A stretch of DNA of 64,000 nucleotides, taken from positions 4,025,373 to 4,089,372 of the forward strand of contig OY970399.1 of assembly GCA_963720545.1 (NCBI GenBank). The letters run 5' to 3'. Source of the DNA: an uncultured Acidobacteriota bacterium. Lineage in GTDB: Bacteria > Acidobacteriota > Vicinamibacteria > Fen-336. Position 1 is the first letter of the stretch, and every line of letters begins with the position of its first letter. The translations under genes were made by a program, and so were the position numbers. Of the stretch, positions 14,542 to 30,238 are shown piece by piece. Under the pieces are notes generated by a model that was given only the letters and a program-made list of their open reading frames with translations, did no database searches and was not told the DNA's origin.

Positions 14542-16116
14542 TCACCCCAAATCCACCCCTTTTTCGTCAAACAACACACGCTTGCCGGAAGCGGCGTCGC
14601 GTGCTGCCGGGGTGATGATGGCTCTCGACCCTACATGCAGGGTGCGGCCAGCCCGAAGTGCCTGGCGCACATCGTCTTCGCTGACGAAATCGAGGAGCGG
14701 CCGGGCGGGGGGCGGGGCGGGAGGGGCCTTGGCTGTCGTGGCGCCGCCGCCCGCGCCCTGGTCACGGTCCTTGGCAAAGGCCAGGCGCTTCACGTTCAGG
14801 AGATGCAACGGCGTGATGTTGTCCGAGGTGATGTTGCCGGCGTGGGCGCCGCAGCCGAGGCTCATGGCCGGCGGCAGCGCGGTGGTGTAACCCGTCGCGC
14901 CCATGGAGGTCTGGGTGTTGGCGACGATGCGCGACGCCGGCATGGCGGCCGCGAAGTCGCGGGCGATGGCCGGATCGCTGCAATGAATGCCGCTGGTGTG
15001 GCCGGTGCCGCCGAAGCGCAGCAGCTGGACGCAGCGCTCGACTCCTTCGCGCCAGTCGCGTACCACGTAGAAAGCGAGCACCGGGCAGAGCTTCTCGATC
15101 GAGAGCGGGTGGTCGCGGCCGACGCCCTGGAGGCGGGCCACGAGCAGGCGCGTGCCGGCAGACACCTCGATTCCGGCGCGGGCGGCGATGAAGGCTGCCG
15201 GCTTGCCGACGATTTCCGGGTTGGCGAGGCGCTGGGCGGTCACCACCACGCGCGCGACGGCCGCCGCTTCCTGCTCGTTCAGGATATGGGCGCCGCAGCG
15301 GCGCAGCTCGGCGAGCGCCTGTTCGGCTACCGCCTGGTCGCAGACGAGCGCCTGCTCCGAAGAGCACAGCGTGCCGTAGTCGAAGGTCTTGCCGGCGACG
15401 ACCTGCGCAACCGCCGCGGCCGTGTCGGCGGAGCGGTCGAGGTAGACGGGCACGTTGCCCGGACCAACGCCATACGCCGGCCGGCCCGAGGAATAGGCCG
15501 CGCGCACCAGGCCGGTGCCGCCGGTCGCCAGGATGACCCCGGTGAGCCGCGACTTCATCAGCTCCTGCGTGCCCTCGAGGCTCACCGTGTCCATGCAGAC
15601 GAGCCCACCTTCCGGCAGGCCGGCGCGGGTGCCGGCTTCGGCCATGATCCGCACCGTTTCCATCACGCAACGGGTTGCCGAAGGATGCGGGCTCATCACC
15701 AGCGAGTCGCCGGCCTTCACGGCGATGAGCGCCTTGTAGATGGCGGTCGAGGTGGGGTTGGTGCACGGCACGATCGCGGCCACGACGCCCATCGGCTCCG
15801 CGATCTCGACGATGCGGTTTTCCTGGTCCTCGCGCAGGATGCCCACGGTGCGCATCGGCTTGATGTAGTCGTGGACAGTGACCGCCGCGAAGCGGTTCTT
15901 GACGGTCTTGTCGGCGACGTTGCCGAAGGTGCTCTCCTCCTGCGCCAGGCGCGCGAGCGGCTCGGCATGGGGCGCCACCGCCTCGGCCATGGCGGCTACG
16001 ATCGCGTCGATCCGCTCCTGCGAAAAAGCGGCCATCAGGCGCTGCGCGGCATGCGCGCCGGCGACCAGGACGCGCGCCTGCTGGACCGAGCGAAGGTCCT
16101 GATCGTTCAAGGACAT
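14542..16116 (-). CDS. Acylating (CoA-dependent) aldehyde dehydrogenase, EutE/AdhE-N family
   Basis: [19 protein letters not shown], catalytic CSSEQ, EKLCP, GHTSGIH. Confidence 0.9.
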
Positions 16117-16208: not shown

Positions 16209-17240
16209 ATGAAGGTTGGTCGCAGGTTCGCCGCACCGCTCGCCGTTTCAGCCCTCGCCCTGGCCGCCGCGGGCTGTGGCAAAGGCTGCAGCCGTGCGAA
16301 GGAAGTCAACGACCTTTCGGTCAGCGTCACCGCCAACCGGCCGCAGGTGCCGATCGAAAGCGCCCTCGAAGTCACCTACACGTGGACCACAGGTCCCGCG
16401 TTCAAGAAGCTCGACAAGGACTATCGGGCGCTCGTGCACTTCAACGACCCGAAGGGCAACCTGTTGTTCGCTGCCGACCACTTGCCGAACCCCACGACGA
16501 AGGATTGGGAACCGGGCAAGACCTACAGCTACACGCGCACCGTGTTCGTGCCGACCTTCCCCTACATCGGGCCGGTCGACATCCGCCTCGGCCTCTATCC
16601 CGAAGGCAAGGGCGAGCGCGTCGCTCTGCAGGGGGAGGACGTCGGCCTGCGTGAATACAAGGCCGGGCGCCTCGAGTTCCTCGACCGCACCAAGAACATC
16701 TTCCTCGTCTACAAGGACGGCTGGCACAGCCCCGAGACCTCGCCCGACAACCCGAGCCTGGAGCGCACCTGGACCGAGAAGGATGCGCTCGTCTCGATGA
16801 AGAACCCGAAGAAGGACATCGTCATCTACATCGAGGCCGACACCAACACCAAGGCGTTCACCAAACCGCCGACGCTGACGGTCTCGGTCAACAACAAGTT
16901 CGGCGCGATCATCCCGGTGGAGAACTCCGAGGTGTTCCTGAAGAAGGTGCGCGTCAAGGGCGAAGACCTCGGCACCGACGAGTGGGTGGACCTGCGGCTC
17001 ACCATGAGCGAGGGCTTCGTGCCCAAGGCGCTCGGCTACAACAGCGACGACCGCGAACTGGGCCTGCTGGTCTATCACCTGCACGTGGCCGAGGCCGACA
17101 AGCTCGGCGACCTGGCGAACCTCGGCGTGCTCGAAGCGGGCCCGGTCACCATCGCGCCGCGCGTGGCGCCGGCAGCCGCCGCCGCGGCGGCCACGCCGCC
17201 CATGGCCATGGCCATGAAGGCGAAGCCGAAGACCAACTAG
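16209..17240 (+). CDS. Hypothetical lipoprotein
   Basis: Signal peptide with AAGC; strongly biased GC3 codon usage; beta-rich. Confidence 0.75.
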   Translation: MKVGRRFAAPLAVSALALAAAGCGKGCSRAKEVNDLSVSVTANRPQVPIESALEVTYTWTTGPAFKKLDKDYRALVHFNDPKGNLLFAADHLPNPTTKDWEPGKTYSYTRTVFVPTFPYIGPVDIRLGLYPEGKGERVALQGEDVGLREYKAGRLEFLDRTKNIFLVYKDGWHSPETSPDNPSLERTWTEKDALVSMKNPKKDIVIYIEADTNTKAFTKPPTLTVSVNNKFGAIIPVENSEVFLKKVRVKGEDLGTDEWVDLRLTMSEGFVPKALGYNSDDRELGLLVYHLHVAEADKLGDLANLGVLEAGPVTIAPRVAPAAAAAAATPPMAMAMKAKPKTN

Positions 17241-18280
17241 CCTTTAGCCTTCAGCTCCAGGACCGCGTGCAGCACCACGCGGTCCGTGCGTTTGCCGGCC
17301 GGCAGCCGCACCTCGATGCCGGTAGGCGAAGTCACGGGGCCCGCGGGCCCGTCGATGACGATCGAAAGACGCAGGCCCGCCCCCGCAACCAGCAGCGCCT
17401 GCGGCACGTCGATCACCGCGCGGCGCCGGACCTCGAGCCGGCCGTCGTCGCCGCTGTTCGCGAGTGCCTCGTCGAGGCGCGCTTCGGCGCGGATCGACAG
17501 CGGCGCCGTCGTCATCATGGCAACGCCGAGCGCGGCGGCGCGCATCGCTTCCAACTCCCGGTTCACGTCGAGCTGGGTGCGGGTCGTGACCGGCTTCAGC
17601 GTCGTGCTGCTCTCGCTGGCCTCGGCGAACTCCAGCGGCGCGGCGCCAGCCGGGATCGGGATCGTGGGCGGCGGCAGGTCGTCGTCCGGGGCCGCCATCT
17701 TCTCGTGGATCTTCTGCAGCGCCAGCTTGGAGATCGCCTTCAGCGTCTCGAAGACGCCGAGCCCATGGAGCGCCGCCGCCTCGAAGTAGCTGCGGCCCGA
17801 GCGGTTCAGGGTCTCCTGCAGGTTCTCGATCGGCACCGTCGTCCGCAGGTCGCGCTTGTTGTACTGGAACACCAGCGGCACCGAGTCGAGCGTCATGCCC
17901 ATCTCGCGCAGGTTGTCCTCGAGGCTGCGCAGCGATTCGACGTTCGCGTCGCGCGCGGCCTCCTGCGAGTCGGCGACGAACACGATGCCGTCCACCCCGC
18001 GCAGCACCAGCTTGCGGGTGGCGTTGTAGAACACCTGGCCGGGCACCGTGTAGAGCTGGATGCGCACCCGCATGCCGCCGATGTTGCCCACCTCGAGCGG
18101 CAGCAGGTCGAAAAACAGCGTTCGGTCGGTGTCGGTCTCGAGGCTCACCATCTCGCCGCGCGACACCTGCGCCGTCTTCTTGTGGATGTGGAGGAGGTTG
18201 GTGGTCTTGCCGCAGAGCCCGGGACCGTAGTACACGATCTTGGCGGACGCCTGCATCGTCGTGTAATTGAAGAACACCAT
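17237..18280 (-). CDS. mglA: MglA-like small GTPase with C-terminal extension
   Basis: KIVYYGPGLCGKTTNL, TLFFDLLP, TVPGQ, GVDGIVFVADS, NKRD. Confidence 0.85.
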   Translation of the reverse strand: MVFFNYTTMQASAKIVYYGPGLCGKTTNLLHIHKKTAQVSRGEMVSLETDTDRTLFFDLLPLEVGNIGGMRVRIQLYTVPGQVFYNATRKLVLRGVDGIVFVADSQEAARDANVESLRSLEDNLREMGMTLDSVPLVFQYNKRDLRTTVPIENLQETLNRSGRSYFEAAALHGLGVFETLKAISKLALQKIHEKMAAPDDDLPPPTIPIPAGAAPLEFAEASESSTTLKPVTTRTQLDVNRELEAMRAAALGVAMMTTAPLSIRAEARLDEALANSGDDGRLEVRRRAVIDVPQALLVAGAGLRLSIVIDGPAGPVTSPTGIEVRLPAGKRTDRVVLHAVLELKAKG

Positions 18281-18354
18281 TTGGGTTGTAGGCGGAGTGT
18301 AGCGCGGCTGCTCGCGCTTTGGCGAAGGCGGTGTGAGCCGCGTTATGCGGCGGT

Positions 18355-18837
18355 CTAGAAGCTGACGCCGGCGCCGATCGAGAAGCGGCCGTCGAGCTTG
18401 ATCGGCGGGTTGCCCGAGAGGCTCAGCCGCCGGTACTCCGCCTTCAGCACCAGGATGCTCGCGGTCTTCACCTTGACGCCGCCGAACACCGCGGTGAGGA
18501 AGCCGTTGTCGGTGATGCCGCCCGGCACGCTCTGGCGGAAGACGCCGGCGCCCGCGCCGGCGTAGGGCTGGATCATGCCGGTGGGCGGCGCCACCACGGC
18601 GCTCGCGGTGAAGGCGGTCATGGCGGTGTCGAGCGACTCGCCGCTGACGCGCGAGGCCTCGCCCTCGAAGCTCACCACCGGCACCAGGCTCGAGGTGAGC
18701 GCGACGCCGTAGGCGCGGCCCCAGTTCTCGCCGGGACGCGGCGCGCCGACGAACACGGTCAGGTCGCCCGCGGTCGTGTCCTGGATGTAGCCGAGGCATA
18801 AGGCCGCGGTCAGGATCGCGATTGCTCCCTTGCGCAT
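18355..18837 (-). CDS. Small outer-membrane beta-barrel protein
   Basis: Signal peptide, PYAGAGAG strand, terminal aromatic residue (GVSF). Confidence 0.7.
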   Translation of the reverse strand: MRKGAIAILTAALCLGYIQDTTAGDLTVFVGAPRPGENWGRAYGVALTSSLVPVVSFEGEASRVSGESLDTAMTAFTASAVVAPPTGMIQPYAGAGAGVFRQSVPGGITDNGFLTAVFGGVKVKTASILVLKAEYRRLSLSGNPPIKLDGRFSIGAGVSF

Positions 18838-18858: not shown

Positions 18859-19098
18859 CTAGTCGATGGCGACGCGGCGGCCGCTGCGCTTTGTGCGCGC
18901 CGCCGCTCGCGGCGTTCGGCCGGCTTCCGCCTGGGCCGCTCGTTCCATCCGTTCCAGCTGCCAGCGGCACATCATGACGATGCCTTCGAGCACCTGCTTG
19001 CGCAGCGCCTGCAGCTTGTCCCTGTCGATGCCGGCATCTTCGAGCAGCTCCGACAGGACGCAGCACGCCTTGGTGCTGTTGCCTCGCCTCGCAGCCAT
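18859..19098 (-). CDS. Small helical hypothetical protein (79 aa), coupled to the ArsA-Hsp20 gene
   Basis: ATG overlaps the upstream TGA (TGATG) with GGAGG upstream; MAARRGNSTKACC...RRVAID. Confidence 0.7.
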   Translation of the reverse strand: MAARRGNSTKACCVLSELLEDAGIDRDKLQALRKQVLEGIVMMCRWQLERMERAAQAEAGRTPRAAARTKRSGRRVAID

Positions 19099-20276
19099 CA
19101 AGCCTCCTTGCCCCCGAACCGCACTCTGAGCACCTGGTCGACGAGCGCCGCGCTCGTCACCGTGCGGCCCGCGATCGAGCGGGGCAGGGTCACGTGGCGG
19201 CGCTGGTTGTCCACCTGCACCACCAGGTCGTCGGCCTTGGTGAACACGCTGAGCCGGTCTTTCTGCGCGAACGGCAGATGGATTGCCATCACGTAGGTGC
19301 CGCGCTCCTTCCTGATCTCGATTGGCCGGCCCTTGAAGAAAGATTGCGACGGGTCGCGCTTGCCGAACACGGCCTTCGCCATCTCGTCGAGGTTCGCAAC
19401 GCCGACCATCTCGCGATCGAAGAGGCGCGACTCGAAGAACGGCACCGGCTCGAACGACTCGCGCGCCTCGCTGAGGTAGCCCTTCTGGATGTCGAACCAG
19501 CGGTCGAAGTAGGGCGAGCGCGCCTCCTCCGGCAGGATGCGGTTCGCGACCACGGCGTCGACCGGAAAGCCGAACAGGCTGAGGTAGGTGTAGAGGCGCT
19601 GCGATTCCTTGATGACCATGCCCTCGGGGTTGAGGACGATGCGGATCGAGCTCGTCTCGGGATCCTGCAGCATCGGCCCCATGCCCTCGAGCTGCTGGTA
19701 GAGCGCCGCCACCGCGCCGAACACGTCGTCGGTGGGGATCGGCATGTCGGTCATGCGCTGCGCCACTGGCCGCACCGAGCGCACCACCGTGCGCTGGATG
19801 GGGAAGATGCGCGTGAAATAGAAGTTGAGGATGTCGGGGACGCCGAGCAGGCGGATGGTTTCGCCGGTGGGCGCGCAGTCGACGATGATGACGTCGTAGC
19901 GGCCGCTGGTCGCGAAGGCGCGTACCCGCAGCAGGCTGAACAGCTCCTCCATCCCCGGCAGGATCGCCATCTCCTCGGCGACCGCGTCGGCGATGCCGCG
20001 GAAGGTCATGAAGCGGGTGAGCCACTCGTGGATGGTGCCCCAGCGCTTCGCCAGCTCCTCGTTGACGTCGATCTCGACCGCGTCGAGCCGCTCCTCGACT
20101 TTCACCGGTTCGGCGCCGAGCGCCACGCCGAGGGCGTCGGCCAGGCTGTGGGCCGCATCGGTCGAGACCACGAGGGTGCGGTGGCCGAGACGCGCGGAGC
20201 GCACGGCGGTGGCGGCCGACAAGGTGGTCTTGCCGACGCCGCCCTTGCCGGAATAGAGGATGACCCTCATCGTCAT
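19098..20276 (-). CDS. ArsA/Get3 family ATPase with C-terminal Hsp20/alpha-crystallin-like domain
   Basis: GKGGVGKTT, STDAAHSL, DCAPTG, VANR; C-terminal beta segment LVVQVDNQRRHVTLPRS. Confidence 0.9.
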   Translation of the reverse strand: MTMRVILYSGKGGVGKTTLSAATAVRSARLGHRTLVVSTDAAHSLADALGVALGAEPVKVEERLDAVEIDVNEELAKRWGTIHEWLTRFMTFRGIADAVAEEMAILPGMEELFSLLRVRAFATSGRYDVIIVDCAPTGETIRLLGVPDILNFYFTRIFPIQRTVVRSVRPVAQRMTDMPIPTDDVFGAVAALYQQLEGMGPMLQDPETSSIRIVLNPEGMVIKESQRLYTYLSLFGFPVDAVVANRILPEEARSPYFDRWFDIQKGYLSEARESFEPVPFFESRLFDREMVGVANLDEMAKAVFGKRDPSQSFFKGRPIEIRKERGTYVMAIHLPFAQKDRLSVFTKADDLVVQVDNQRRHVTLPRSIAGRTVTSAALVDQVLRVRFGGKEA

Positions 20277-21403
20277 CGTCGGCGCTCCGCCGGGAACATC
20301 TCGCGCGCCAGTGCGTCGAGCCCGCGCAGGTCGTGGATGTCGGTGTCGCCTTCCGCCACCGCCACCACCCGGCCGCCGCCCTCGGCCGACAGACGCGCGA
20401 GCGTCTTGCGGGCGCCCTTTGCGAGCGCCTGTTCGTCGCGGAAGGCAGCGGCGAGCCGCGCGCGCAGGTCTGTGGGGAGAACCGCGGCCGCCGTGCCCCG
20501 GCCGCGCGCGGCGCCGCTCGCGGGGTCCTGGTGGACGCGGTTGGCGACGAACGTCACGAAGGGCATCTTTTTTTCCCGCAGGCGCTCGTGAAAGTAGAGC
20601 GCCTCCATGAGCGCCGCCGGCGAGGGGCCGCAAACCACCACGAACCCCGACTGCGGGTCGCGCAGCAGCGCGAACACGCGCGCGGCTCTTTCCTTGAATC
20701 CATCGTACATGCCCTCGAACGCCAGGAAGAACTCGGACAGCTCCTGCAGGAAGGCGAGGCCGATGGCACGGTCGGCGAGCCGCAGCGCCATGGCTCCGGT
20801 GCGCGTCGCCACCTTGAAGGTGAGCTTGCCGGCGACGAAGTAGGGGCGCAGGAAGAAGCGCAGGATGCCGGTATCGAGGAACGACAGCATGCGGTCGGGC
20901 GCCTCGAGGAAGTCGAGCGCATGCCGCGTCGGCGGCGTGTCGAGCACGATCAGGTCGAAGCGCTTCTCGGCGCGCAGGGCGAGGAGCCGTTCCATGGCCA
21001 TGTACTCCTGGCTGCCGCCGAGCGCCGAGGACACCTCGACGTAGAAACGGTTCCGCAGGATGCGGTCGCGCGCCGCGGCATCGGGTGCGTGGCGCGAGAC
21101 CACCTCGTCGAAAGTCCGGCGGGTGTCGAGCGCCATCGCATGGAGCGATCCCTTCGCGCCGAAGCCGCCGAGGTCGAGGCGCCGGGGCGCACCCTCGAGC
21201 CGGTCGAGGCCGAGGCTCGTCGCGAGTCGCCGCGACGGGTCGATGGTGCAGACGAGCACCGTGCGCCCCAGGCGAGCCGCCTGCAGCGCGAGCGAAGCGG
21301 CTAGTGTGGTCTTGCCGACGCCGCCGGCGCCGCACACGACGAGCACCTTGCGCGCGTCGAGCGCAGCGGCCAGCGCGGTGCGCCCGGAACCGGTGCCGCT
21401 CAC
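20273..21403 (-). CDS. ArsA/Get3 family ATPase, Rv3680/BagB-like
   Basis: CGAGGVGKTT, TIDPSRRLA, QEYMAME, LDTPP..ALDFLEAP. Confidence 0.88.
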   Translation of the reverse strand: MSGTGSGRTALAAALDARKVLVVCGAGGVGKTTLAASLALQAARLGRTVLVCTIDPSRRLATSLGLDRLEGAPRRLDLGGFGAKGSLHAMALDTRRTFDEVVSRHAPDAAARDRILRNRFYVEVSSALGGSQEYMAMERLLALRAEKRFDLIVLDTPPTRHALDFLEAPDRMLSFLDTGILRFFLRPYFVAGKLTFKVATRTGAMALRLADRAIGLAFLQELSEFFLAFEGMYDGFKERAARVFALLRDPQSGFVVVCGPSPAALMEALYFHERLREKKMPFVTFVANRVHQDPASGAARGRGTAAAVLPTDLRARLAAAFRDEQALAKGARKTLARLSAEGGGRVVAVAEGDTDIHDLRGLDALAREMFPAERRR

Positions 21404-22332
21404 AGCCCGCCCTGTTCCGACAAGCGGTCGGCGAGCGCCTCGAGCTGCGCGCGTCGCGACGGCATCTCATAGAGGTAGGGCAGGCGCAGGACGTCGTCGA
21501 AGGCGGCGCGCAGCCGCTTGTCGTAGAACTGCGTGAGGCGCCGCCGCCTGATGTTGTGGCGGGCGGCGCGCAAGGCGCCTCGAAGGGGCACGCCGGGAGC
21601 GACGCTGCCACCAGCGCCGGCGGCGAACAGCGCCAGCACTTCCTTTTCCTGGGCGGCCGTGAAGCGCCGCTCGTGGCAGGCGTTGAGGAACAGGCCCGCC
21701 GTTTCGATCCGCAGGTCCGCCGAGAGGTCGCGCGCGAGCTGCACCGCTTCCACCGCCGCCATCTCTTCGGGGATCGCGACCAGGGCTGTTGCGGTCCGCT
21801 TGCGGTCGCGCAGCAGCTCCAGGATGCGGCGCGCATTGCTGCCGATGGGGCCGAGGGGCGCCACGCGCAGCGCGGCCTGCGGCGCCTTCAGCAGGTACAG
21901 ACCATGGCCGGTGGCCGGCGCATCGAGCACGACGAGGTCGTAGCGCGGCTGCAGCGTCATGATCTTGCCGAGCGTCATCAGGTCGTCGAGGCCGGGGGCC
22001 GCGGCGAAGAAGCGCCGGTAGATCGGGCTGGCCAGGATGCGCCGCGAGAACATCGAGAACTTCACCACGTGGCGCACGTAATCGTCGAGCGCCTCTTCGG
22101 GATCGATGTTCATTGCGAAGATCGACGGCGCCACCTCGATTTCGCGGTGTCCGACGGGCGGCGCGTCGAAGTAACGCGCCAGCTCCACGGGCGCGTCGAC
22201 CTCGGCGAGCAGCGTGCGCTTGCCGCGGCGCGCGGCGAGCACCCCGAGGAGGCTCGCCACCAGGCTCTTGCCGACTCCGCCCTTGCCGGTGAGGATGACG
22301 AGTCGCTTCTCGAGCAGGGCGTCAAGGTTCAC
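21400..22332 (-). CDS. ArsA/Get3 family ATPase, Rv3679/BagA-like
   Basis: TGKGGVGKS, AAPGL, DAPATGH, PEEM. Confidence 0.88.
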   Translation of the reverse strand: MNLDALLEKRLVILTGKGGVGKSLVASLLGVLAARRGKRTLLAEVDAPVELARYFDAPPVGHREIEVAPSIFAMNIDPEEALDDYVRHVVKFSMFSRRILASPIYRRFFAAAPGLDDLMTLGKIMTLQPRYDLVVLDAPATGHGLYLLKAPQAALRVAPLGPIGSNARRILELLRDRKRTATALVAIPEEMAAVEAVQLARDLSADLRIETAGLFLNACHERRFTAAQEKEVLALFAAGAGGSVAPGVPLRGALRAARHNIRRRRLTQFYDKRLRAAFDDVLRLPYLYEMPSRRAQLEALADRLSEQGGL

Positions 22333-22358
22333 GGACGGAAAGGATAACGTGTGGGCTC

Positions 22359-23747
22359 ATGCGCCGGGGCTCGCCGTCTTCCTCGTGGGTCCTTCTCACC
22401 GTCGCCCTGCTCGGCCTCGGGGTGCGCATCGTCGGCCTGGACGCCTGGGGCACCTTCGACACCGAGGTGCAGAAGGCGTGGTCGGTGCGTGCGGCGCAGG
22501 GACTCGCCGACATCTACGGCCCCTCGGATCGCGACCTGGCCGCGTACGCGAGCACGCACGGCGGGGCATGGGCGCTCGTGAGCGGCGCAGCGCGCTTCCC
22601 GCGCACCGAGTTCCTGTGGGGCGAGGCGCGCTACTTTGTGGACTATCCGCCGGGCAGCATCGTGGTGCTGGCGCTCGAGGGCAAGGCATACCGGCTGCTG
22701 CGCCCGGAGATGCCGAACAAGGCGCTCTTCAACACGGTCATCAACATCGGGCCCCTGCTCGCGAGCCTGCTGATCGCCTGGCTGCTCTGGCTCAGCGTGC
22801 CGCCCGGTAACGGACAACGCGGAATCGAAACGGCGCGCGCCGCCGGCTACTGGCTGAACCCGGCCGCGATATTCGCGGCGCCGTTCCTCGGCTACCCCGA
22901 CCCGATCTTCTCGGTGTTCGGCGTCGGCGCGGTCCTGGCATTGGCGCGCGGCGCGCTTCCGCTGGCGGCGGCGCTCGGGGTGGCCGCGACTCTCATCAAG
23001 CCGCAAGGCGTGCTGCTGGCGCCCGTGATCTTCGGCCTGCTGGCGCGCCGGGGCTCGGCAGCGGCCTGGTGGCGCTCCCTGGCCGCTGGCGCCGCGACTG
23101 CAACTGTGGTGCTCTCGCCGTGGTGGCTCAGCGGCCACTTGTTCTCGGCGCTCGACGGCTTCCGCCGCCCCTTCGGGCAGGGCACGCTGGCACCCCTCGG
23201 CCTCAACGTCTGGTGGGCGGCGGGCTACGTGGCCGACCGGCTGGCCGGCGACACTTCGGGCCTCGCGCGCATCTGGACGATCGACGCGTTCACGCAGGCG
23301 AGCGGCGTCGATCCGCGCATCGTCGCCAGGATCGCGCTCGTCGGCGCGTCGCTCGTGATGTTTCTTTGGAGCTATCGCCGCCGTCTCGAAGGCGAGGGTG
23401 CCCTGGCCCTGGCGGTTATCGTCATGGTGCACACCTACGCGCTCCTCTCGACGAGCGTCCACGAAAACCACACGTTCCTCGCCGTGGCGTTGGCGCCGCT
23501 CCTCTTATTCTCGGTGCCGTGGGCGCGCACCGTGCTTGCCGCAACCTCGGCATTCCTCGGCCTCAGTCTGTTCTTCGCCGCCGGCCTCGGCCGTCGGGTG
23601 ACGCACTTGCGCAGGATCGAGGACCTGCGCTTCCAGGCCGGCTTCGACCCCACAGTGGTCACCGCGCTGCTGCACGTGGCGCTCGTTGCCTTCCTGTGGC
23701 TGCTGTTGGCGCGGGTCAGCGCCGGGCGCGGTGGCGCCGAGCGTTAA
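22359..23747 (+). CDS. Polytopic membrane protein, GT-C-type glycosyltransferase-like
   Basis: DYPP loop, NPA, IKPQ and HE motifs; many hydrophobic segments. Confidence 0.65.
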   Translation: MRRGSPSSSWVLLTVALLGLGVRIVGLDAWGTFDTEVQKAWSVRAAQGLADIYGPSDRDLAAYASTHGGAWALVSGAARFPRTEFLWGEARYFVDYPPGSIVVLALEGKAYRLLRPEMPNKALFNTVINIGPLLASLLIAWLLWLSVPPGNGQRGIETARAAGYWLNPAAIFAAPFLGYPDPIFSVFGVGAVLALARGALPLAAALGVAATLIKPQGVLLAPVIFGLLARRGSAAAWWRSLAAGAATATVVLSPWWLSGHLFSALDGFRRPFGQGTLAPLGLNVWWAAGYVADRLAGDTSGLARIWTIDAFTQASGVDPRIVARIALVGASLVMFLWSYRRRLEGEGALALAVIVMVHTYALLSTSVHENHTFLAVALAPLLLFSVPWARTVLAATSAFLGLSLFFAAGLGRRVTHLRRIEDLRFQAGFDPTVVTALLHVALVAFLWLLLARVSAGRGGAER

Positions 23748-23760
23748 CATCCGGAGATCC

Positions 23761-25647
23761 ATGGCAGCGAAGCACTTCCCGCCGCAGCGCTACATTGCGC
23801 GTGTCGATGCCATCACCGGCGAAGAGCTGGGCGGCGCGATCGATCCGGAAGAGCTGCTGGTGCACGCGCACCGCGACCGCCATCCGGTCGAGATCGGCAT
23901 GCAGTTTGCGGCCAGCCGCCTCATCGACATGACGCGCAACGAGGTTCTCGTGCGCCAGGGGATGCGGCTCATGAACGAGGTGGGTGAGGCGCTCGCCGGC
24001 GGCATCGGCTTCGCCACCGGCAGCCCTGCCTTCGAGCGCCGTGCGCGCCGCATCCTCGGCGTCGTGCAGCGCGAGCACTACTTCCGGTTCCGCGAGCCCA
24101 CGCATCACTCCGAGCGCGAGGTCCGCGAACGGCTCGCGGAGCTGCGTCGGGGAGCGGCCGCGGCACTCAAGCGGCGCGGCCGCAACCCGCGCCTGCAGGT
24201 GCTGCTCACCGGCGCCACCGGCTTCGTCGGCAAGGAGATAGTGAAGCAGGCGGCGGCCGACCCGCGCATCGAGCGGGTGATCGCAGTGGTGCGGACGGAA
24301 ACCCTGCGCGACCCCAGGACCAGGACGGTGGTGAAGGTGATCGGGGCCGGGGAGCGCGGCGCCCTGCTGTTGCGGCGGCTGGGCATCGACGCGCGCGCCG
24401 CGCGGCGGTTCGAGTTCGTCGCCGGCGACATCGAGAAACCCGGCTTCGGCCTGCCGCGCACGACGCTCGCGCGCCTGCGCAGGAGCCTCACGCACGTCGT
24501 GCACTGCGCGGCGAGCGTCGCCTTCGACGCTCCATACGACGCGTCGTTCCGCGCCAACGTGCTTGGCTCCCTGAACGCGCTGCGGTTTTCGCGCTCGGTG
24601 CAGGACACACCCGGCTCGGCGTTCGTCCACCACGTCGCGATCGAGACGTCCTACATCCACGGGCGGCGCAAGAGTTCGATGGCCGCCGAGAGCGCGCTGG
24701 CGTTTCCGCGGCACTTCTACAACAACTTCTACGAGCTGACGAAGGCGCTCGCGTCGATCGAGACCGACCGCGCGATGATCGAGGGACTGCGCGTGGCGCA
24801 GCTGCTGCCGTCGATAGTCATCGGCGATGCCCATACCGGCAACAACCGCGGCGACACCAAGGTGGTGAACGCCCCGATCAACGCCTTTGGCCGGATCAAG
24901 GAGATGGTCGATGCCGCCGCCGCGGGCGGTGGTGCCGCGGAGCGCCTGCGTACGGCGCTCGTGGCGCTCGTCGCCAACTCGTTTCCCGGCGACCCATCGG
25001 CAGAACTCAACCTGGTGCCGGTGGACCGGGTGGTGGCCGGCATCCTGGCGGCGGTGCACCGCCCGGAGGCGATCGGGCGTCGCATCCACCTCGCCACCGA
25101 CAACCGCATCCGCTCGGCGGACATCGTGCGCATCGCGCGTGCCGAGCTGGGCGTCAACACGCGGCTCGCCGATCCGACGCTCTACCGCAACCTGACGCTG
25201 CCGGTGGTGAAGGCGATCCTGCTGCGCATGGACCAGCCGAAGCTCGCGAACGCGCTCGAGAAGCTCGGTACCATCTTCGGCGGCTACAACGAGTGGGGCC
25301 AGCCGGTGCACGAAGTGGGCAACGACGTGCGCATCCTCGGACTCGGCATCCACCGGCCCGACACGCAGGCGGCGTTTCGCATGCTGTGCCGTCACAACCG
25401 CTACGTGCAGGAGTACGGCAAGGTCAAGGATCCGGACGAGATCGCGCGCCGCGAGGCGCTGTGGGCCGCTTTCGTGGACCACGTCGAGCATCGCAGCGGC
25501 CGCGAGGCGGGCTTCATGCCGGCACCCGAGTTCGCGCGCATGCTCGCGGCCGAGATCGACCTCCGCACGTTCACGGCCGCCGCAACGGAAAGGGCGGGAC
25601 GGTCAAAGCGCGGGCCACAGGCGCGGCCGCGGCAGCGTTCGGCATGA
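23761..25647 (+). CDS. Fatty acyl-CoA/thioester reductase (extended SDR, male-sterility type) with N-terminal extension
   Basis: LLTGATGFVG, HCAASV, YELTK (YxxxK), PSIVIG, NLVPVD. Confidence 0.75.
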   Translation: MAAKHFPPQRYIARVDAITGEELGGAIDPEELLVHAHRDRHPVEIGMQFAASRLIDMTRNEVLVRQGMRLMNEVGEALAGGIGFATGSPAFERRARRILGVVQREHYFRFREPTHHSEREVRERLAELRRGAAAALKRRGRNPRLQVLLTGATGFVGKEIVKQAAADPRIERVIAVVRTETLRDPRTRTVVKVIGAGERGALLLRRLGIDARAARRFEFVAGDIEKPGFGLPRTTLARLRRSLTHVVHCAASVAFDAPYDASFRANVLGSLNALRFSRSVQDTPGSAFVHHVAIETSYIHGRRKSSMAAESALAFPRHFYNNFYELTKALASIETDRAMIEGLRVAQLLPSIVIGDAHTGNNRGDTKVVNAPINAFGRIKEMVDAAAAGGGAAERLRTALVALVANSFPGDPSAELNLVPVDRVVAGILAAVHRPEAIGRRIHLATDNRIRSADIVRIARAELGVNTRLADPTLYRNLTLPVVKAILLRMDQPKLANALEKLGTIFGGYNEWGQPVHEVGNDVRILGLGIHRPDTQAAFRMLCRHNRYVQEYGKVKDPDEIARREALWAAFVDHVEHRSGREAGFMPAPEFARMLAAEIDLRTFTAAATERAGRSKRGPQARPRQRSA

Positions 25648-26645
25648 CCGCGGCACGCAATCGCACTCGTAGAGTCGCGGTGTTGGGAAGCGCCTCGTTC
25701 CTCGGCGCCCGCGTGCTGAGGCGGCTGGCGCGCGAAGCGCGGGATGAGGTGCTGGCGATCGACATCGCGGCGCCGCCGGCGGCGCTCGACGATGTCCGTC
25801 ACTGCCGCCTCGACCTGACCCGGCCCGACGCCGGCCACGACCTGTTGGCGCTGCTGCGCGACGAGGACGTCGGCACCTTGCTCCATTTCGCGTTCTTCAC
25901 CAACCCGCGCCGCGACACGGCGTACTCGCACGAACTCGAGTCGATCGGTACGCTCTCGGTGTTCGCAGCGGCGGCCGCCGCCGGCGTCGAGCACGTGGTG
26001 ATGCGCTCGTTCACCGCGGTCTACGGCGCGCGCGGCCAGAACCCGAACTTCCTCACCGAGGAGCGAGCCCTGGCGGCGGCGTCCGATTTTGCCTGGCTCC
26101 GCGACAAGCTCGAGGCGGAGCAGCACGCGGCCGCCTGCGCGCGCCGCTACCCGAAGCTGAACGTGACGGTGCTGCGCTTCGCGCCGCTCTTCGGCCCCGG
26201 GGTGCAGACCTTCTACACCGGCGTCTTCGACAAGCGGGTGGTGCCGATCGTCATGGGGTACGACCCGCTGCTGCAGCTGCTGCATCCCGAGGATGCCGAA
26301 GGCGCGGTCACGGCCGCGCTCACGCACCGCCCGCGCGGCGCCGTCAACGTGGTGCCGAGCCGCGCGCTGCCGCTCCTGACGGCGCTACTGCTGGCCGAGA
26401 AGGTGCCGCTGCCGGTGCCGCACGGCATCGCCTATGCAGGCGCCGACCTCCTGTGGAGCGCGGGCCTGGCCGCCGCGCCTGGCGGTTTCGTCGACTACGC
26501 GCGCTTCCTGTTCGTGGCCGACGGCGCGCGGGCCGCGCGAGAGATGGGGTTCACCGCGCGCCACACGAGCCGCGCGGCGCTCGAGTCGTACCTCGGCTAT
26601 CGCCATCCCACGCGGCCAGCGCGGCTGCGCGAGGTCGAGGCATGA
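25644..26645 (+). CDS. NAD-dependent epimerase/dehydratase-like SDR (Rv0501-like)
   Basis: LGSASFLG, TAVYGA, LRFAP, YDPLLQLLHPED; ATGA-coupled. Confidence 0.8.
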   Translation: MTAARNRTRRVAVLGSASFLGARVLRRLAREARDEVLAIDIAAPPAALDDVRHCRLDLTRPDAGHDLLALLRDEDVGTLLHFAFFTNPRRDTAYSHELESIGTLSVFAAAAAAGVEHVVMRSFTAVYGARGQNPNFLTEERALAAASDFAWLRDKLEAEQHAAACARRYPKLNVTVLRFAPLFGPGVQTFYTGVFDKRVVPIVMGYDPLLQLLHPEDAEGAVTAALTHRPRGAVNVVPSRALPLLTALLLAEKVPLPVPHGIAYAGADLLWSAGLAAAPGGFVDYARFLFVADGARAAREMGFTARHTSRAALESYLGYRHPTRPARLREVEA

Positions 26646-27670
26646 GCCGCGCAAGCCGGGCCAAGGTCGTTCCGATTCGGCCTGTGGGCGGCCGGCGTGC
26701 ACGCGCCCTGCGGTCGCCAGCGCACGACGACGAGGCGGAGGCGCTGCGCTCGCGGCTCCGTGGCCTGGAGCGCGAGTTCGCCCGCGACGGCCTGTTCGTG
26801 CGGCTGGCGCGGCTCGTCGAGAAGGGCTCGGCGGCGAGCAGCTGGGAGAAGCTCGCCCGCGGGCTGTCGGCGGCGTACTTCACCTGGCATTCGGAGACGG
26901 TGGACGACTTCGGCTACGACGAGAAGTTCGCCGCTTCGGTGCGTCCGATGCTCGAGTTCCTCTACAACGTGTGGTGGCGGGTCGAGGCCACGGGCGTCGC
27001 GAACGTCCCGGCCACTGGCCCGGCGCTGGTCGTTGCCAATCACTCCGGGGTGCTTCCGTACGACGGCCTGATGATGCACCTCGCGATCCGCCAGCAGCAT
27101 CCCGCGCGCCGCGAATGCCGCCTGCTGGCGCTCGACATGTTCGCGCTCCTGCCGTTCCTCGCGCCCTTGCTGCAGCAACTGGGCGCGGTGCGCGCGAGCC
27201 AGGAGAACGGCGAGCGCCTGCTGCGCGGCGGCGAGCTCGTCGGCGTGTTCCCCGAAGGCGTCAAGGGTGTCGGCAAGCCGTTCCGCCGCCGCTACCAGCT
27301 GGCGCGCTTCGGTCGCGGCGGCTTCGTGCGCCTCGCGCTGCGCACCGGCGCGCCGCTCGTGCCCTGCGCGATCGTCGGCGCGGAGGAAATCCACCCGATG
27401 ATCGGCGACATCAGCTTCGTCGGCCGGCCGCTGGGCCTGCCGTTCGTGCCGGTGACGCCGACCTTTCCGCTGCTCGGCCCGCTCGGCCTGGTGCCGCTGC
27501 CGTCGAAGTGGTCGATCGACTTCGCCGACCCGATCGCCACCGACGGCTACGGGGCGGACGCCGCCGACGACCCGATCCTCGTCAACCGCCTCTCCGAAAC
27601 CGTGCGCGCGACCATCCAGGAAATGATCGACGGCCGGCTCGCGCGTCGCCGCTCCGTCTGGTTCGGCTGA
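26642..27670 (+). CDS. Lysophospholipid/glycerolipid acyltransferase family protein (Rv0502-like)
   Basis: NHSGVLPYD, VFPEG, FGRGGFVRLAL, PLPSKW. Confidence 0.88.
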   Translation: MSRASRAKVVPIRPVGGRRARALRSPAHDDEAEALRSRLRGLEREFARDGLFVRLARLVEKGSAASSWEKLARGLSAAYFTWHSETVDDFGYDEKFAASVRPMLEFLYNVWWRVEATGVANVPATGPALVVANHSGVLPYDGLMMHLAIRQQHPARRECRLLALDMFALLPFLAPLLQQLGAVRASQENGERLLRGGELVGVFPEGVKGVGKPFRRRYQLARFGRGGFVRLALRTGAPLVPCAIVGAEEIHPMIGDISFVGRPLGLPFVPVTPTFPLLGPLGLVPLPSKWSIDFADPIATDGYGADAADDPILVNRLSETVRATIQEMIDGRLARRRSVWFG

Positions 27671-27676
27671 GGGCCG

Positions 27677-28861
27677 TTAGCGCGGGCCGAGCCGCGTCTC
27701 GAGGGTGCGCAGGGCGCCGGCGAGTTGGCGGGCCACGGCGGAGTGGTGCGTTGGCGCAGGGGCCGAGCGGCGCGCCGCCGCCTTGTTGCGCAGCTTGATG
27801 CCGTGGCGGCCCAGCATGCGCGCGAATGCCAGCCGGCCGGTGCCGCGGAACGCCGCCATCGCCGAGCGATAGCCGTACTGCGCCACCGTGCGCCGCGCCG
27901 CGACGCGCATGATGTTGTGGGCGAACATGCGCATGTCTTCGCGCCGCGGCTCGATCAGCAGGATGTCCACCTCGGGATGCTCGAGGCGGTAGCGCTCGAG
28001 GCCGTATTGCATGCGGCCGTGGAGCGAGATGCGCAGCACCTGGTCGAGGACGTAGGTGATGCCCTTGTGGCTCAGCGGACCGCCGAGCAGCGGCCGGCGC
28101 GCGTCGTTGCGGATCGGCACGATCGGGTTGATGCAGATGACCAGGTCGGCGCCGTGGCCGATCGCGAGGTTGACGTGCGCGGTCTTGCGCACACCGCCGT
28201 CGACGTACTCGCGGCCGCCAATGCGCACCGGACGGTACAGACCCGGCAGCGCCGTCGAGGCCTGCACCGCCTTGGAAATGGGCACGTCGCGCCGGCCGCG
28301 GTCGCCGAAGGCCACCGCCTCGCCGCTGTCGAGGTCGACCGCGACCAGGAACAGCTGGCGCGCCAGTTGCGAGAAGCGGTCGGTGCCGGCCCGTTCGCGA
28401 AAGGTGGTCGCCAGGAAATCGGCGATGCCGGAGTTGTCGAGCAGGCCCGACGGCAGCAGCTCGAAGAACGGCATCAGCAGGTCGTAGGCGCTCTCGCCCT
28501 CGCCGCGCATGAGGCGTGCGAGCGTTGCGCGCAGCAGGGCGGGGGCGCGTGCCGAGCGCCGGGCGATTTCCCGCGTGCCGAGGCGGAAGAGCGGGCTGCC
28601 GAGGGCGCCGAACAGCGGGCTGCTGTCCTCCAGGAGCTCGTGATACAGGTCGCCAGGCGGGATGCCGTTCGCGAGCAGCGAGGTGACGAACGCCCCGCCG
28701 CTGACACCAACGTACATGTCGAAGTCGAGGACACTGCGGTCGAGCAGGTCCTCGAGCGCCCGCAGCACACCGATCTCGTAGACGGCGCCGGTGACGCCGC
28801 CGCCCGCACAGACGAGGGCGACCTTGGTGGGGCGGCTTGGGCGGCTGCGGCGAACGCCCAG
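27677..28861 (-). CDS. Patatin-like phospholipase/esterase; probable CTG start
   Basis: GGGVTG, GVSGG (GxSxG), ASTALP, DGG; the glycine-rich loop lies upstream of the first canonical start. Confidence 0.85.
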   Translation of the reverse strand: MGVRRSRPSRPTKVALVCAGGGVTGAVYEIGVLRALEDLLDRSVLDFDMYVGVSGGAFVTSLLANGIPPGDLYHELLEDSSPLFGALGSPLFRLGTREIARRSARAPALLRATLARLMRGEGESAYDLLMPFFELLPSGLLDNSGIADFLATTFRERAGTDRFSQLARQLFLVAVDLDSGEAVAFGDRGRRDVPISKAVQASTALPGLYRPVRIGGREYVDGGVRKTAHVNLAIGHGADLVICINPIVPIRNDARRPLLGGPLSHKGITYVLDQVLRISLHGRMQYGLERYRLEHPEVDILLIEPRREDMRMFAHNIMRVAARRTVAQYGYRSAMAAFRGTGRLAFARMLGRHGIKLRNKAAARRSAPAPTHHSAVARQLAGALRTLETRLGPR

Positions 28862-28865
28862 GAGG

Positions 28866-29294
28866 CTACCGCCGTGTCTTCTTCTGCGCGCCGATGCGGC
28901 GCGAGAGCTCGTCGACCTTGCGGGTCAGCGTCGCGATCTCGCGGCGGCTCGGGATGTTGAGCGCCGCGAGCGTGCGCCTGGCGGTCTCCTCGGCCACGCG
29001 CGACACAGTCTTGCGTTCCTTCTCGACGCGCTCCTGGATGAGAGTGAGGCCGGCGTCGATGCGCTTCAGGGCGCTGCGCCGCTCGGCGATCACGGCGCGG
29101 CCGATCGAGGCGATGGCCTTGCGCGCGTCCACGTGCGAGAGGTTGCTGCGCAGCTGGTGGATGGCGCCCTCAGCCGTGTGCACCGCGGCACGCGCGGCAT
29201 TTTTCGCGGTGCGGGTGGCCGACTCGAGCCGAGACGGGGCGGCCTTGCTCTGCGACGATGCTTGCTTCCGTGCGGACTTCCTGCGTGCTGCCAT
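28866..29294 (-). CDS. Phasin-like granule-associated protein (PhaF/PhaI type)
   Basis: ALNIPSRREIATLTRKVDELS motif; Lys/Arg/Ala-rich ends; strong AAGGAG SD. Confidence 0.75.
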   Translation of the reverse strand: MAARRKSARKQASSQSKAAPSRLESATRTAKNAARAAVHTAEGAIHQLRSNLSHVDARKAIASIGRAVIAERRSALKRIDAGLTLIQERVEKERKTVSRVAEETARRTLAALNIPSRREIATLTRKVDELSRRIGAQKKTRR

Positions 29295-29316
29295 GACGTT
29301 TCTCCTTTTTCCTTCC

Positions 29317-29946
29317 TTACTTCGGGTGCGATTGCTTCTTGCGTGGAACGCGCTTCCTGCCGCGCCGCGCCTTTGCGGCTGGCAGGCTGGTTTCGAGCGT
29401 GGCGAGGCGCTCCTTGAGGGTGGTGAGCGACGGCATCACACCGAACTCCTTTTCGCTCGAGGCGACGAGTTCGCCGAGCCGGCGCTCGACCGAGTGCTGC
29501 GCGTCGTGCACTGCGCGGCCGGCCGCGGCAACGATCGCGACGCGCAATGCCGCCGCGTCCTCCAGGCCGAGGCGGCCGCGGGTGATGAGGTCGCCCGCGA
29601 TGCGCTCGGCCTCGCGGCCCACGCGGGCGGCGGCGTCGGGCAGCGCCGGCAGCGCCTCGGCACGGCCGGCGGAAGCCAGCGCCAGTGTGATGATGCGCTG
29701 CAGGATGCGCTTCGGCAGGGTGTTGGTGCGGCGCTTGAGGGTCTCGACGAGCGCCGCGCCCAGCACCTGCGAGCTGATGTCGCGGCCGCTGCTGCTGCGC
29801 TCGCGGATCGTGAGGTCGGCGCCGCGCGCCGCCAGCTCGCTGAGCGCCTCGAGGGTGACGTAGCGGCGCTCGTGCAGGTCGTAGAGCTTGCGGTTCGCGT
29901 AGCGGACCACGATGCGCTCGGCCGGGATGCTGCCCTTGCGCGGCAT
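29317..29946 (-). CDS. PhaR-like DNA-binding domain fused to a phasin-like helical C-terminus
   Basis: RYANRKLYDLHERRYVTLEAL..GRDIS matches the PHB-accumulation regulator N-terminal domain. Confidence 0.78.
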   Translation of the reverse strand: MPRKGSIPAERIVVRYANRKLYDLHERRYVTLEALSELAARGADLTIRERSSSGRDISSQVLGAALVETLKRRTNTLPKRILQRIITLALASAGRAEALPALPDAAARVGREAERIAGDLITRGRLGLEDAAALRVAIVAAAGRAVHDAQHSVERRLGELVASSEKEFGVMPSLTTLKERLATLETSLPAAKARRGRKRVPRKKQSHPK

Positions 29947-30025
29947 GGATCGACCATAACGCACTGCGTCATAGTTGTCAAGAGCGAATGACGCGGCGCG
30001 TTACAGGAAGCAAGCGCCTGGGGCG

Positions 30026-30238
30026 TCAGCGCGGGTTGGGTTCGATCGTCAGCGGTGCGCGCTGGCGGCGGTGATGCTCGAGGCGCACGAACACCACGCC
30101 GAGGACGAGCCCCAGGCAGAGCGAGGCCAACACGACGAATCCGGCGAGCTTCAGCGAGCCGAGCACCACCGACACCAGGTCGAAGGTCGGCTTCGGCACC
30201 ACGACCCAGAGGATGGTGGGCGGGGGAGACGGCGCCAT
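30026..30238 (-). CDS. Small membrane protein (70 aa)
   Basis: Long hydrophobic segment; extended -10 box 7 nt upstream of ATG. Confidence 0.55.
   Translation of the reverse strand: MAPSPPPTILWVVVPKPTFDLVSVVLGSLKLAGFVVLASLCLGLVLGVVFVRLEHHRRQRAPLTIEPNPR

Follow-up and report, generated by a model that had tools for sequence, protein, structure and literature searches.

In a 64,000-nucleotide stretch from the genome of an uncultured Acidobacteriota bacterium of the class Vicinamibacteria (contig OY970399.1), hereafter the window, we analysed a locus at positions 18859–29946 in which genes for a PhaR-like regulator, a phasin-like protein and a patatin converge on genes for a reductase, a short-chain dehydrogenase/reductase (SDR) and an acyltransferase, next to three genes for Get3/ArsA-type ATPases. 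It forms the terminal part of a genome of 4.09 Mb in a single contig, which is 94.8 % complete, and all positions given here are window coordinates. We consider the chances about even that the locus encodes a neutral-lipid body, most likely of wax ester, that forms independently of the synthase PhaC and carries a coat and a regulator of the polyhydroxyalkanoate (PHA) type. In such a body, fatty alcohol would arise from acyl thioesters through the fatty acyl reductase (FAR)-type protein and be esterified by the DGAT2-like acyltransferase, with the phasin forming the droplet coat and the patatin recycling the lipid by hydrolysis. Open reading frame calls and family scans of the window with Pfam and NCBIfam confirmed the identity and strand of every gene named in the original prediction, which had proposed such a body.

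That prediction had noted that the window holds no phaC, phaB or wax ester synthase/diacylglycerol acyltransferase (WS/DGAT) gene, and the genome-wide searches extended this observation. PhaC was absent from the 94.8 % complete genome both by two profiles and by tblastn with two PhaC-like proteins, with a profile control that was positive in Caulobacter. Family searches (PF03007/TIGR02946) and tblastn found no WS/DGAT genome-wide; one of these searches had a silent control, and the same family search did find matches in five relatives. The best PhaB-family score in the genome was 254 bits, below the cut-off of 302, and a PhaE search gave no match in the control genomes either. Across the order, in a set of 41 genomes that counts the present one, PhaC-like matches occurred in three, all below the cut-off, and WS/DGAT in five. 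Of the components of a PHA carbonosome, the phasin and the PhaR-type regulator are thus present, while PhaC was not found and PhaB falls under its cut-off. The genome has a FadD-like gene of the long-chain type and, for beta-oxidation, 3HCDH genes; FcrA-like, ABC1 kinase and SCP2-like genes were not found in it.

The three plus-strand genes of the putative synthetic arm are coupled through ATGA overlaps. The first encodes the FAR/thioester-reductase-type protein (23761–25647), which matched PF07993 at 111 bits, above the cut-off, and stayed below the cut-offs of TIGR01746 and PRK07201. Its Rossmann loop (TGATGFVG) and YxxxK motif (YELTK) are intact, and its structural model, with a mean confidence (pLDDT) of 77.6, was closest to thioester-reductase domains and to the rice FAR DPW. 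An N-terminal domain of 140 amino acids (23761–24190) is kept in the family and matched no Pfam model. Elsewhere in the genome there is no second strong FAR-family match, and there are two FAD-oxidase matches.

The acyltransferase (26642–27670) matched both PF01553 and PF03982. The HX4D motif of PlsC/GPAT enzymes was found in none of 108 sequences of its family, in which NHx6D (93/108) and an FPEG block (104/108) are common; the RGFA block of DGAT2, RxGF(V/I)(K/R)xA, which is defined with the other DGAT2 motifs in PMC10171310, was present in 47 of the 108 in its strict form and in 76 when relaxed. A DAGAT (PF03982) match at E≤0.001 was obtained for 44 of 66 family members and for none of the five other PlsC-family genes of this genome, which are of the HX4D type. 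By these motifs, the acyltransferase is DGAT2-like and not a housekeeping PlsC; it is of the Rv0502 type (below). A neutral-lipid product is plausible by analogy, because the cyanobacterial DGAT2-like enzyme Slr2103 makes triacylglycerol (TAG), phytyl esters and acyl-plastoquinol and localizes to lipid droplets (PMC12048435, PMC12223511). The DGAT2-like motifs and the interchange of reductases and acyltransferases in other lineages (below) speak in favour of the neutral-lipid product proposed in the original prediction.

The SDR (25644–26645, plus strand), originally listed as a member of the run, probably is not a working catalyst. The column of the catalytic Tyr holds F in 46, W in 23, Y in 10 and S in one of 80 sequences, Tyr being replaced in 70; the window protein has W151, its glycine loop is degenerate and it lacks the YxxxK motif of catalytic GalE-like extended SDRs. 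Full fusions of SDR and acyltransferase were found in two of 150 acyltransferase representatives (P0135 and P0161), and a complex prediction for the two proteins scored 0.76, compared with 0.37 for the best control. Of 157 solved complexes, 116 attain the mark applied, as do two of 215 mismatched pairs; these rates are only roughly valid for the alignments used here. The runs shared at least 94 % of contacts, with a partner pLDDT of at least 87, the predicted interface includes invariant residues, and the SDR side of it was more conserved than the protein average (0.60 versus 0.53); PDB sequence searches returned only distant relatives of each chain. Taken together, the Tyr column, the fusions and the complex prediction suggest an atypical extended SDR of the Rv0501 type that is predicted to bind the acyltransferase as its dinucleotide-binding regulator or scaffold. 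The pair is orthologous to a mycobacterial pair, at about 49 % identity, and we assign it to the Rv0501/Rv0502 type because in the Mycobacterium loci the pair precedes cmaA2-, hadD- and serB1-like genes; the label Rv0501 and some of those of the flanking genes are ones that we assume. The gene order around Rv0502 was taken from PMC7005898, and PMC10593935 lists Rv0502 as a PlsC homologue that is conserved in M. leprae.

On the minus strand, the genes for the PhaR-like regulator (29317–29946), the PhaF/PhaI-type phasin-like protein with basic tails (28866–29294) and the patatin-like lipid hydrolase (27677 to about 28861) follow one another. The regulator is the sole PhaR-N protein of the genome (PF07879, 44.7 bits, above the cut-off) and joins a PhaR DNA-binding domain to a weakly phasin-like C-terminal half, with a TIGR01848 score of 46 bits against a cut-off of 109. 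The phasin was above the cut-off of PF05597 (32.6 bits) and below that of TIGR01837, and its C-terminal helix is amphipathic. The patatin (PF01734, 97 bits) retains all three catalytic motifs, GGGVTGA, GVSGG and DGG. Its start is uncertain: no ATG, GTG or TTG precedes the glycine loop, the candidates being CTG or GTT (28855–28861), of which we propose the CTG at 28861, whereas its homologues in the order start with GTG, TTG or ATG. An identical contig from a public sequencing run (X1) covers this region, and the odd start could mean low translation or early decay. A phasin–patatin fusion was rejected because stop codons within the phasin gene interrupt the reading frame of the patatin and the relatives use ordinary starts just upstream.

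A sigma70-like promoter of phaR (TTGACA-17-TATGGT, 29953–29981, minus strand) ends 6 nt before the phaR ATG, so the transcript is probably leaderless. Two palindromes of the form TRACGC-N3-GCGTYA (29957–30003), which we predict to be the PhaR operator, frame this promoter, one (29957–29971) covering the −10 box and the other (29989–30003) lying upstream of the −35 box. At least one such site was found in 16 of 16 phaR upstream regions, and two in 14 of them. With a matrix trained on these sites, the window's own included, the two window palindromes were the only sites of the genome that scored at least 18, where a Markov null gave none; at a score of 14 the genome had 7 matches against 5.5 expected. 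The same palindrome was found near phaR or phasin genes in five of 11 Chloroflexota regions and in three loci of other lineages (L086, L092 and L125). Since the palindrome is kept at phaR promoters, the phaR–phasin–patatin genes appear to form a conserved, autoregulated unit with a predicted operator. In the known PhaR–phasin circuit the regulator is titrated off the DNA by inclusions; by analogy, PhaR would here repress its own phaR–phasin–patatin operon and be titrated off as droplets form. No PhaR regulon that spans the reductase operon or the ATPases was found.

To follow the locus through the order we used the 41 genomes, in which 23 relatives are near-complete; the acyltransferase was present in 36 and BagB in 37 of the 41. 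The genes fall into two modules. Module B comprises reductase–SDR–acyltransferase on the plus strand, convergent with patatin–phasin–phaR on the minus strand, and module A the BagA-like, BagB-like and Get3d-like ATPase genes with a gene for a protein of 79 amino acids. We fetched 20 acyltransferase-centred regions from the 36 positive genomes, selected on score and contig span: all 20 held the SDR and the acyltransferase, 19 the reductase, 16 the phasin, 15 the patatin and 15 phaR, and in one genome (G007) patatin and phaR lie just past the edge of the fetched stretch. In all 20 a second phasin-like gene of about 100 amino acids stands directly before the SDR gene, between it and the reductase gene (L011:7992-8297; L012–L030). 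In metagenomic loci (L131, L157, L169 and L205) such a gene adjoins bagAB. All 19 BagB-centred regions contained BagA, BagB, the Get3d-like gene and the 79-amino-acid gene, and none contained a module-B gene. The distance from acyltransferase to BagB on shared contigs was about 17 kb (G023), 47 kb (G016), 340 kb (G025) and 400 kb (G012). Because the relatives keep the modules separate, the tight adjacency of A and B is particular to this lineage, and a single conserved 11-kb unit is ruled out; of the synteny that the original prediction put forward, the module-B block stands across the order and the locus as a whole does not. The same two of the 23 near-complete relatives, G011 (98 % complete) and G018 (97 %), lack acyltransferase, BagB, patatin and PhaR-N; G011, although without both modules, has a PhaC-like match.

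Outside the order, a scan of a genome collection with a diverse acyltransferase alignment gave at least 594 relatives in at least 599 stretches, of which the best 80 were kept; among their phyla are Myxococcota, Actinomycetota and Chloroflexota. In 71 of the 80, an SDR match lay within 10 kb of the acyltransferase (in L095 it is not adjacent), and nine hold further genes of the set. The fullest of them has fused bagAB, an SCP2-like gene, the second phasin, SDR, acyltransferase, patatin, phasin and phaR (L086); another has phaR, phasin, SDR, acyltransferase and two patatins (L092), and a third SDR, acyltransferase, phaR and bagAB (L099). Phasin-like, phaR or patatin genes adjoin the SDR–acyltransferase pair in L086, L092, L098, L102, L125 and L247. 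In L065 and L068 the supposed Bag/Get3 neighbours proved to be ParA/MinD/MeaB proteins, false positives that do not enter the counts. The BagA–BagB fusion, of 631 amino acids, is from a Thermoanaerobaculia genome (L086:5950-7842). A small SCP2-like protein, a possible lipid carrier whose PF02036 match (E about 0.05) is under the cut-off, recurs beside the SDR–acyltransferase pair in several phyla (L086:7854-8294, L092, L098, L106 and L218).

In a sample of 91 genomes of the phylum, BagB was present in nine and the acyltransferase in four, all of them BagB-positive. In seven BagB-positive Acidobacteriota genomes outside the class, bagAB stands directly beside phaR–phasin–patatin in four, and PhaC was found in none. 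Four loci from other Acidobacteriota (L213–L216) combine bagAB–phaR–phasin(s)–patatin with an ABC1 kinase, an HMGR-like gene and FadD, and their acyl-transfer gene is either a distant NHSG acyltransferase or a WS/DGAT; in L215 the WS/DGAT fills the operon place that the related NHSG acyltransferase has in L213 and L214. The reductase of L213–L215 is an HMGR-like protein with an N-terminal extension, which we infer to be of the FcrA type after PMC11948995, and in L098 and L102 a PRK07201/AcrB-type reductase, above the cut-off of the profile that PMC11948995 uses for AcrB, stands beside genes of the set. By family assignment, three reductase types (FAR/R-domain, AcrB type and HMGR-like) thus adjoin these genes. 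In one class of Myxococcota, PhaR-N occurs in 40 of 41 genomes, and 14 of 20 phaR regions join BagB, acyltransferase, SDR and phaR, with phasin and patatin absent there; a strong PhaC match was found in three of the 20 genomes of the fetched regions. In Chloroflexota, PhaR-N was present in 12 of 61 genomes, and in 11 regions phaR had an orthologous patatin beside it in six, a phasin in six and the SDR–acyltransferase pair in one; two of these 11 genomes have a WS/DGAT match.

The three ArsA-family genes overlap one another on the minus strand (19098–22332). The Get3d-like protein (19098–20276) has a Get3/ArsA-fold ATPase domain and a C-terminal HSP20-like domain (PF02374, 301 bits; PF17886, 76 bits); it was above the cut-off of TIGR00345 and below that of NF050088, its P-loop and switches I and II are intact and CxxC is absent. 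Coupled to it is the gene for a helical, basic protein of 79 amino acids that matched no family (18859–19098, minus strand). The BagB-like ATPase (20273–21403, Rv3680 type) scored 330 bits with NF053621, cut-off 521, and its best PDB match was 6bs3_B (E 3e-69). For the BagA-like ATPase (21400–22332, Rv3679 type), NF053622 was the best NCBIfam model at 105 bits, cut-off 400, and 6bs3_A matched with E 6.6e-20, E. coli ArsA scoring similarly. By similarity, the tandem pair is closest to Rv3679/Rv3680, with the BagA assignment the weaker one. An arsenite pump ArsA was rejected, given TIGR04291 scores of 48–76 bits against 650 and single-domain genes. The ATPases might serve a lipid-body system as chaperones of amphipathic proteins or of lipid, a possibility that we hold doubtful. 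The tie of the ATPases to the other genes, through recurrent neighbourhood and co-absence, is the weakest step of the argument.

Several observations weigh against a lipid body of the kind proposed here. With regard to the enzymes, the fold search with the acyltransferase model returned a general PlsC/GPAT fold, its PF03982 score is marginal (22.7 bits, cut-off 22) and the distant acyltransferases of L213 and L214 have no DAGAT match. The eukaryotic DGAT2 blocks (H/E)PH(G/S), GG(A/V)xE and VPxxxFG occur in 0, 2 and 0 of the 108 sequences, a departure that Slr2103 shares (PMC10171310), and bacterial DGAT2-like enzymes can favour other acceptors, giving for example acyl-plastoquinol (PMC10156143). 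At the predicted interface the acyltransferase is less conserved than on average (0.58 versus 0.63). As to gene content, the 10 kb around the acyltransferase are devoid of phasin, phaR, patatin, FAR, SCP2-like and Bag genes in 71 of the 80 loci, and the present FAR family occurs in one of the 80. The second phasin-like gene of the relatives is missing from this genome, ATPase genes are found in none of the 20 module-B regions, and the phaR palindrome is absent before the reductase operon and bagA and from 20 Bag-region stretches, which does not support co-regulation of these operons with phaR. One relative has a PhaC-like gene together with module B (G016), and class III PhaC is strongly matched in four of the 11 Chloroflexota phaR genomes. 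The relatives are not independent, and the co-losses in G011 and G018 may be a single event.

Of the other explanations, two concern the products of the minus- and plus-strand operons. The reductase–SDR–acyltransferase operon might make or remodel a membrane lipid, such as an alkyl ether or an unusual acyl glycerolipid, with phaR–phasin–patatin as a separate neighbour. We regard this as unlikely, though a good deal less so than an ordinary PHA granule (see below). The myxobacterial ether-lipid operons elb and MXAN_1674-1676 hold the same three domain types (PMC9131029), FarA and FcrA are described as frequently serving pathways besides wax esters (PMC11948995), and the modelled PlsC/GPAT fold and the listing of Rv0502 among PlsC homologues would suit a membrane-lipid enzyme, as would the lack of phasins in most SDR–acyltransferase loci and of an operator common to both operons. 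Yet HX4D is missing throughout the family, the locus has no acyl carrier protein (ACP) or acyl-CoA synthetase (ACS) domain, unlike ElbD, and the second phasin-like gene sits inside the reductase–SDR run of all 20 relatives; in other phyla, too, the pair repeatedly has phasin-like, phaR or patatin genes as neighbours. Alternatively, phaR–phasin–patatin would serve an ordinary PHA granule, with the patatin as depolymerase and a synthase that is either outside the assembly or too divergent. Genome completeness leaves room for this, Chloroflexota genomes that have class III PhaC share phasin–phaR and its operator, so that the trio is also compatible with PHA in them, and in Synechocystis, which produces polyhydroxybutyrate, the slr0058-slr0060 operon encodes both a PhaF-like protein and a patatin (PMC7203880). 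We nevertheless think it quite improbable, considering that 38 of the 41 genomes of the order and all seven other BagB-positive Acidobacteriota give no PhaC match, that strong matches are few in the Myxococcota class and that PhaB is under its cut-off.

The remaining explanation concerns the ATPases and is compatible with a module-B lipid body. The three proteins might be general chaperones of membrane proteins or amphipathic helices, brought next to module B by a local rearrangement, a proposal to which we give somewhat less than an even chance. In agreement with it, the modules are 17–400 kb apart where relatives have both on one contig, the phaR palindrome does not extend to the Bag regions, and only six of 80 metagenomic BagB loci, many of them short, show another gene of the set, one of these just a Get3d-like gene. 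PMC6593721 calls the bacterial roles of such Get3/ArsA proteins unclear. For Get3d, in vitro capture of a transmembrane helix and co-purification of a molecule the size of a phospholipid are described, in a study whose authors doubt that there is a primary lipid site (PMC10248533); the mycobacterial bagAB phenotypes are glycerol and nitric oxide toxicity (PMC10597346) and drug fitness (PMC12216072). Against mere adjacency, the linkage of bagAB to the other genes recurs in distant lineages with different gene orders, the modules are lost together in two of the 23 near-complete relatives, and all four acyltransferase-positive genomes of the phylum sample are among its nine with BagB.

The two modules are separated in the window by a gene for a GT-C-like membrane protein with nine predicted transmembrane segments (22359–23747, plus strand), which lies between the ATPase and the reductase groups and has no Pfam match; some homologues carry the source name Gpi18-like mannosyltransferase. 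It was rejected as a member of the system, being absent from the regions of 40 relatives. Contigs from public runs span the junctions of bagA, this gene and the reductase (X1 and X2) and the patatin start with no or one difference; X1, the best of these runs, may itself be the source sample of the genome. Between an amidase gene and phaR lies a gene for a protein of 70 amino acids with two transmembrane segments (30026–30238), which is kept in the relatives and matched no family. Module A is followed by genes for an outer membrane beta-barrel, an MglA-like GTPase with a long C-terminal extension and a lipoprotein (16209–18837), which stay with it in many relatives. Next to these is an aldehyde-dehydrogenase-like gene (14542–16116), and relatives have a microcompartment shell-like gene beside its homologue; we presume the labels of this gene, aldehyde dehydrogenase and a microcompartment-type tail. 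Towards the end of the window, which is also that of the contig (58000–64000), GC content declines from about 70 % to 58 %. A terminator scan was no better than chance. No publication that combines these genes was found by title or abstract in a collection without most subscription journals.

Neutral-lipid storage in bacteria is credited almost entirely to WS/DGAT, whereas phasins and PhaR are linked with PHA. Should the PhaC-independent body proposed here exist, then storage lipid is made by a DGAT2-like enzyme outside photosynthetic bacteria as well, and it is a misreading to infer PHA production for a genome from its phasin or PhaR matches. The enzymes of myxobacterial TAG synthesis are described as unknown in PMC4048283, where deletion of the single DGAT did not abolish TAG, and the present set is, as conjecture, a candidate for them. 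A bolder reading, which we hold to be unlikely, is an unrecognized cross-phylum lipid-droplet system consisting of a DGAT2-like enzyme with its pseudo-dehydrogenase, PhaR-governed phasins, a patatin and BagAB/Get3d loaders, of which this locus would be the most complete copy; it would give the orphan Rv0501/Rv0502-type pair and the BagAB ATPases a shared role and phasins a place without PHA. From the recurring BagAB tie follows, in addition, a specific hypothesis on the clients of Get3-like ATPases in bacteria. Independently of any droplet, the widespread Rv0501/Rv0502-type pair looks like a complex of pseudo-enzyme and acyltransferase, and the PhaR-like protein has a definable, if predicted, operator.

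The locus resembles both a carbonosome and a wax-ester body and belongs to neither as these are defined. With the PHA carbonosome circuit (PhaF/PhaI; Synechocystis slr0058-slr0061, PMC7203880) it shares PhaR-N, a PF05597 phasin and a patatin in one operon and a palindromic operator over the regulator promoter; it differs in having no PhaC found and PhaB under the cut-off, in a PhaR that is below TIGR01848 and has a phasin-like C-terminal half, and in that the phaR operon faces acyl-lipid enzymes. Compared with the bacterial wax-ester pathway of FarA/AcrB/FcrA and WS/DGAT (PMC11948995), a FAR-type enzyme is likewise coupled to an acyltransferase, and related loci have an HMGR-like gene with WS/DGAT (L215) or AcrB (L098 and L102); here, however, WS/DGAT is absent and the role of synthase would fall to a protein with a PlsC/DGAT2-like fold, while the reductase carries an additional domain at its N-terminus and gives no Pfam match for the C-terminal part of FAR. 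The myxobacterial elb and MXAN_1674-1676 operons (PMC9131029) also bring FAR-like, acyltransferase and epimerase-family genes together, whereas here the genes stand alone, with no ACS or ACP domain, HAD or AGPS gene in the locus and no multidomain FAR-ACS-ACP-acyltransferase.

With Slr2103/A0918 (PMC10171310, PMC12048435, PMC12223511), compared by their descriptions, the acyltransferase shares PF03982, the RxGF(V/I)(K/R)xA block, VPxxxVG and YFR-like variants and the lack of a clear N-terminal transmembrane anchor; unlike Slr2103, it is accompanied almost always by an SDR and has phasins as neighbours. The mycobacterial and streptomycete loci of the Rv0501/Rv0502 pair, for their part, are without phasin, phaR, patatin and FAR. 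As in BagA/BagB (Rv3679/Rv3680; PDB 6BS3-6BS5), the ATPases include a tandem of divergent ArsA-fold proteins, and as in Get3d (PMC10248533; group 6 of PMC6593721) the third paralogue has an HSP20-like domain; they fall below the BagA, BagB and NosAFP equivalog cut-offs, and what sets them apart is the presence of three paralogues with a small partner in one operon and a linkage to phaR and phasin genes that recurs in several lineages.

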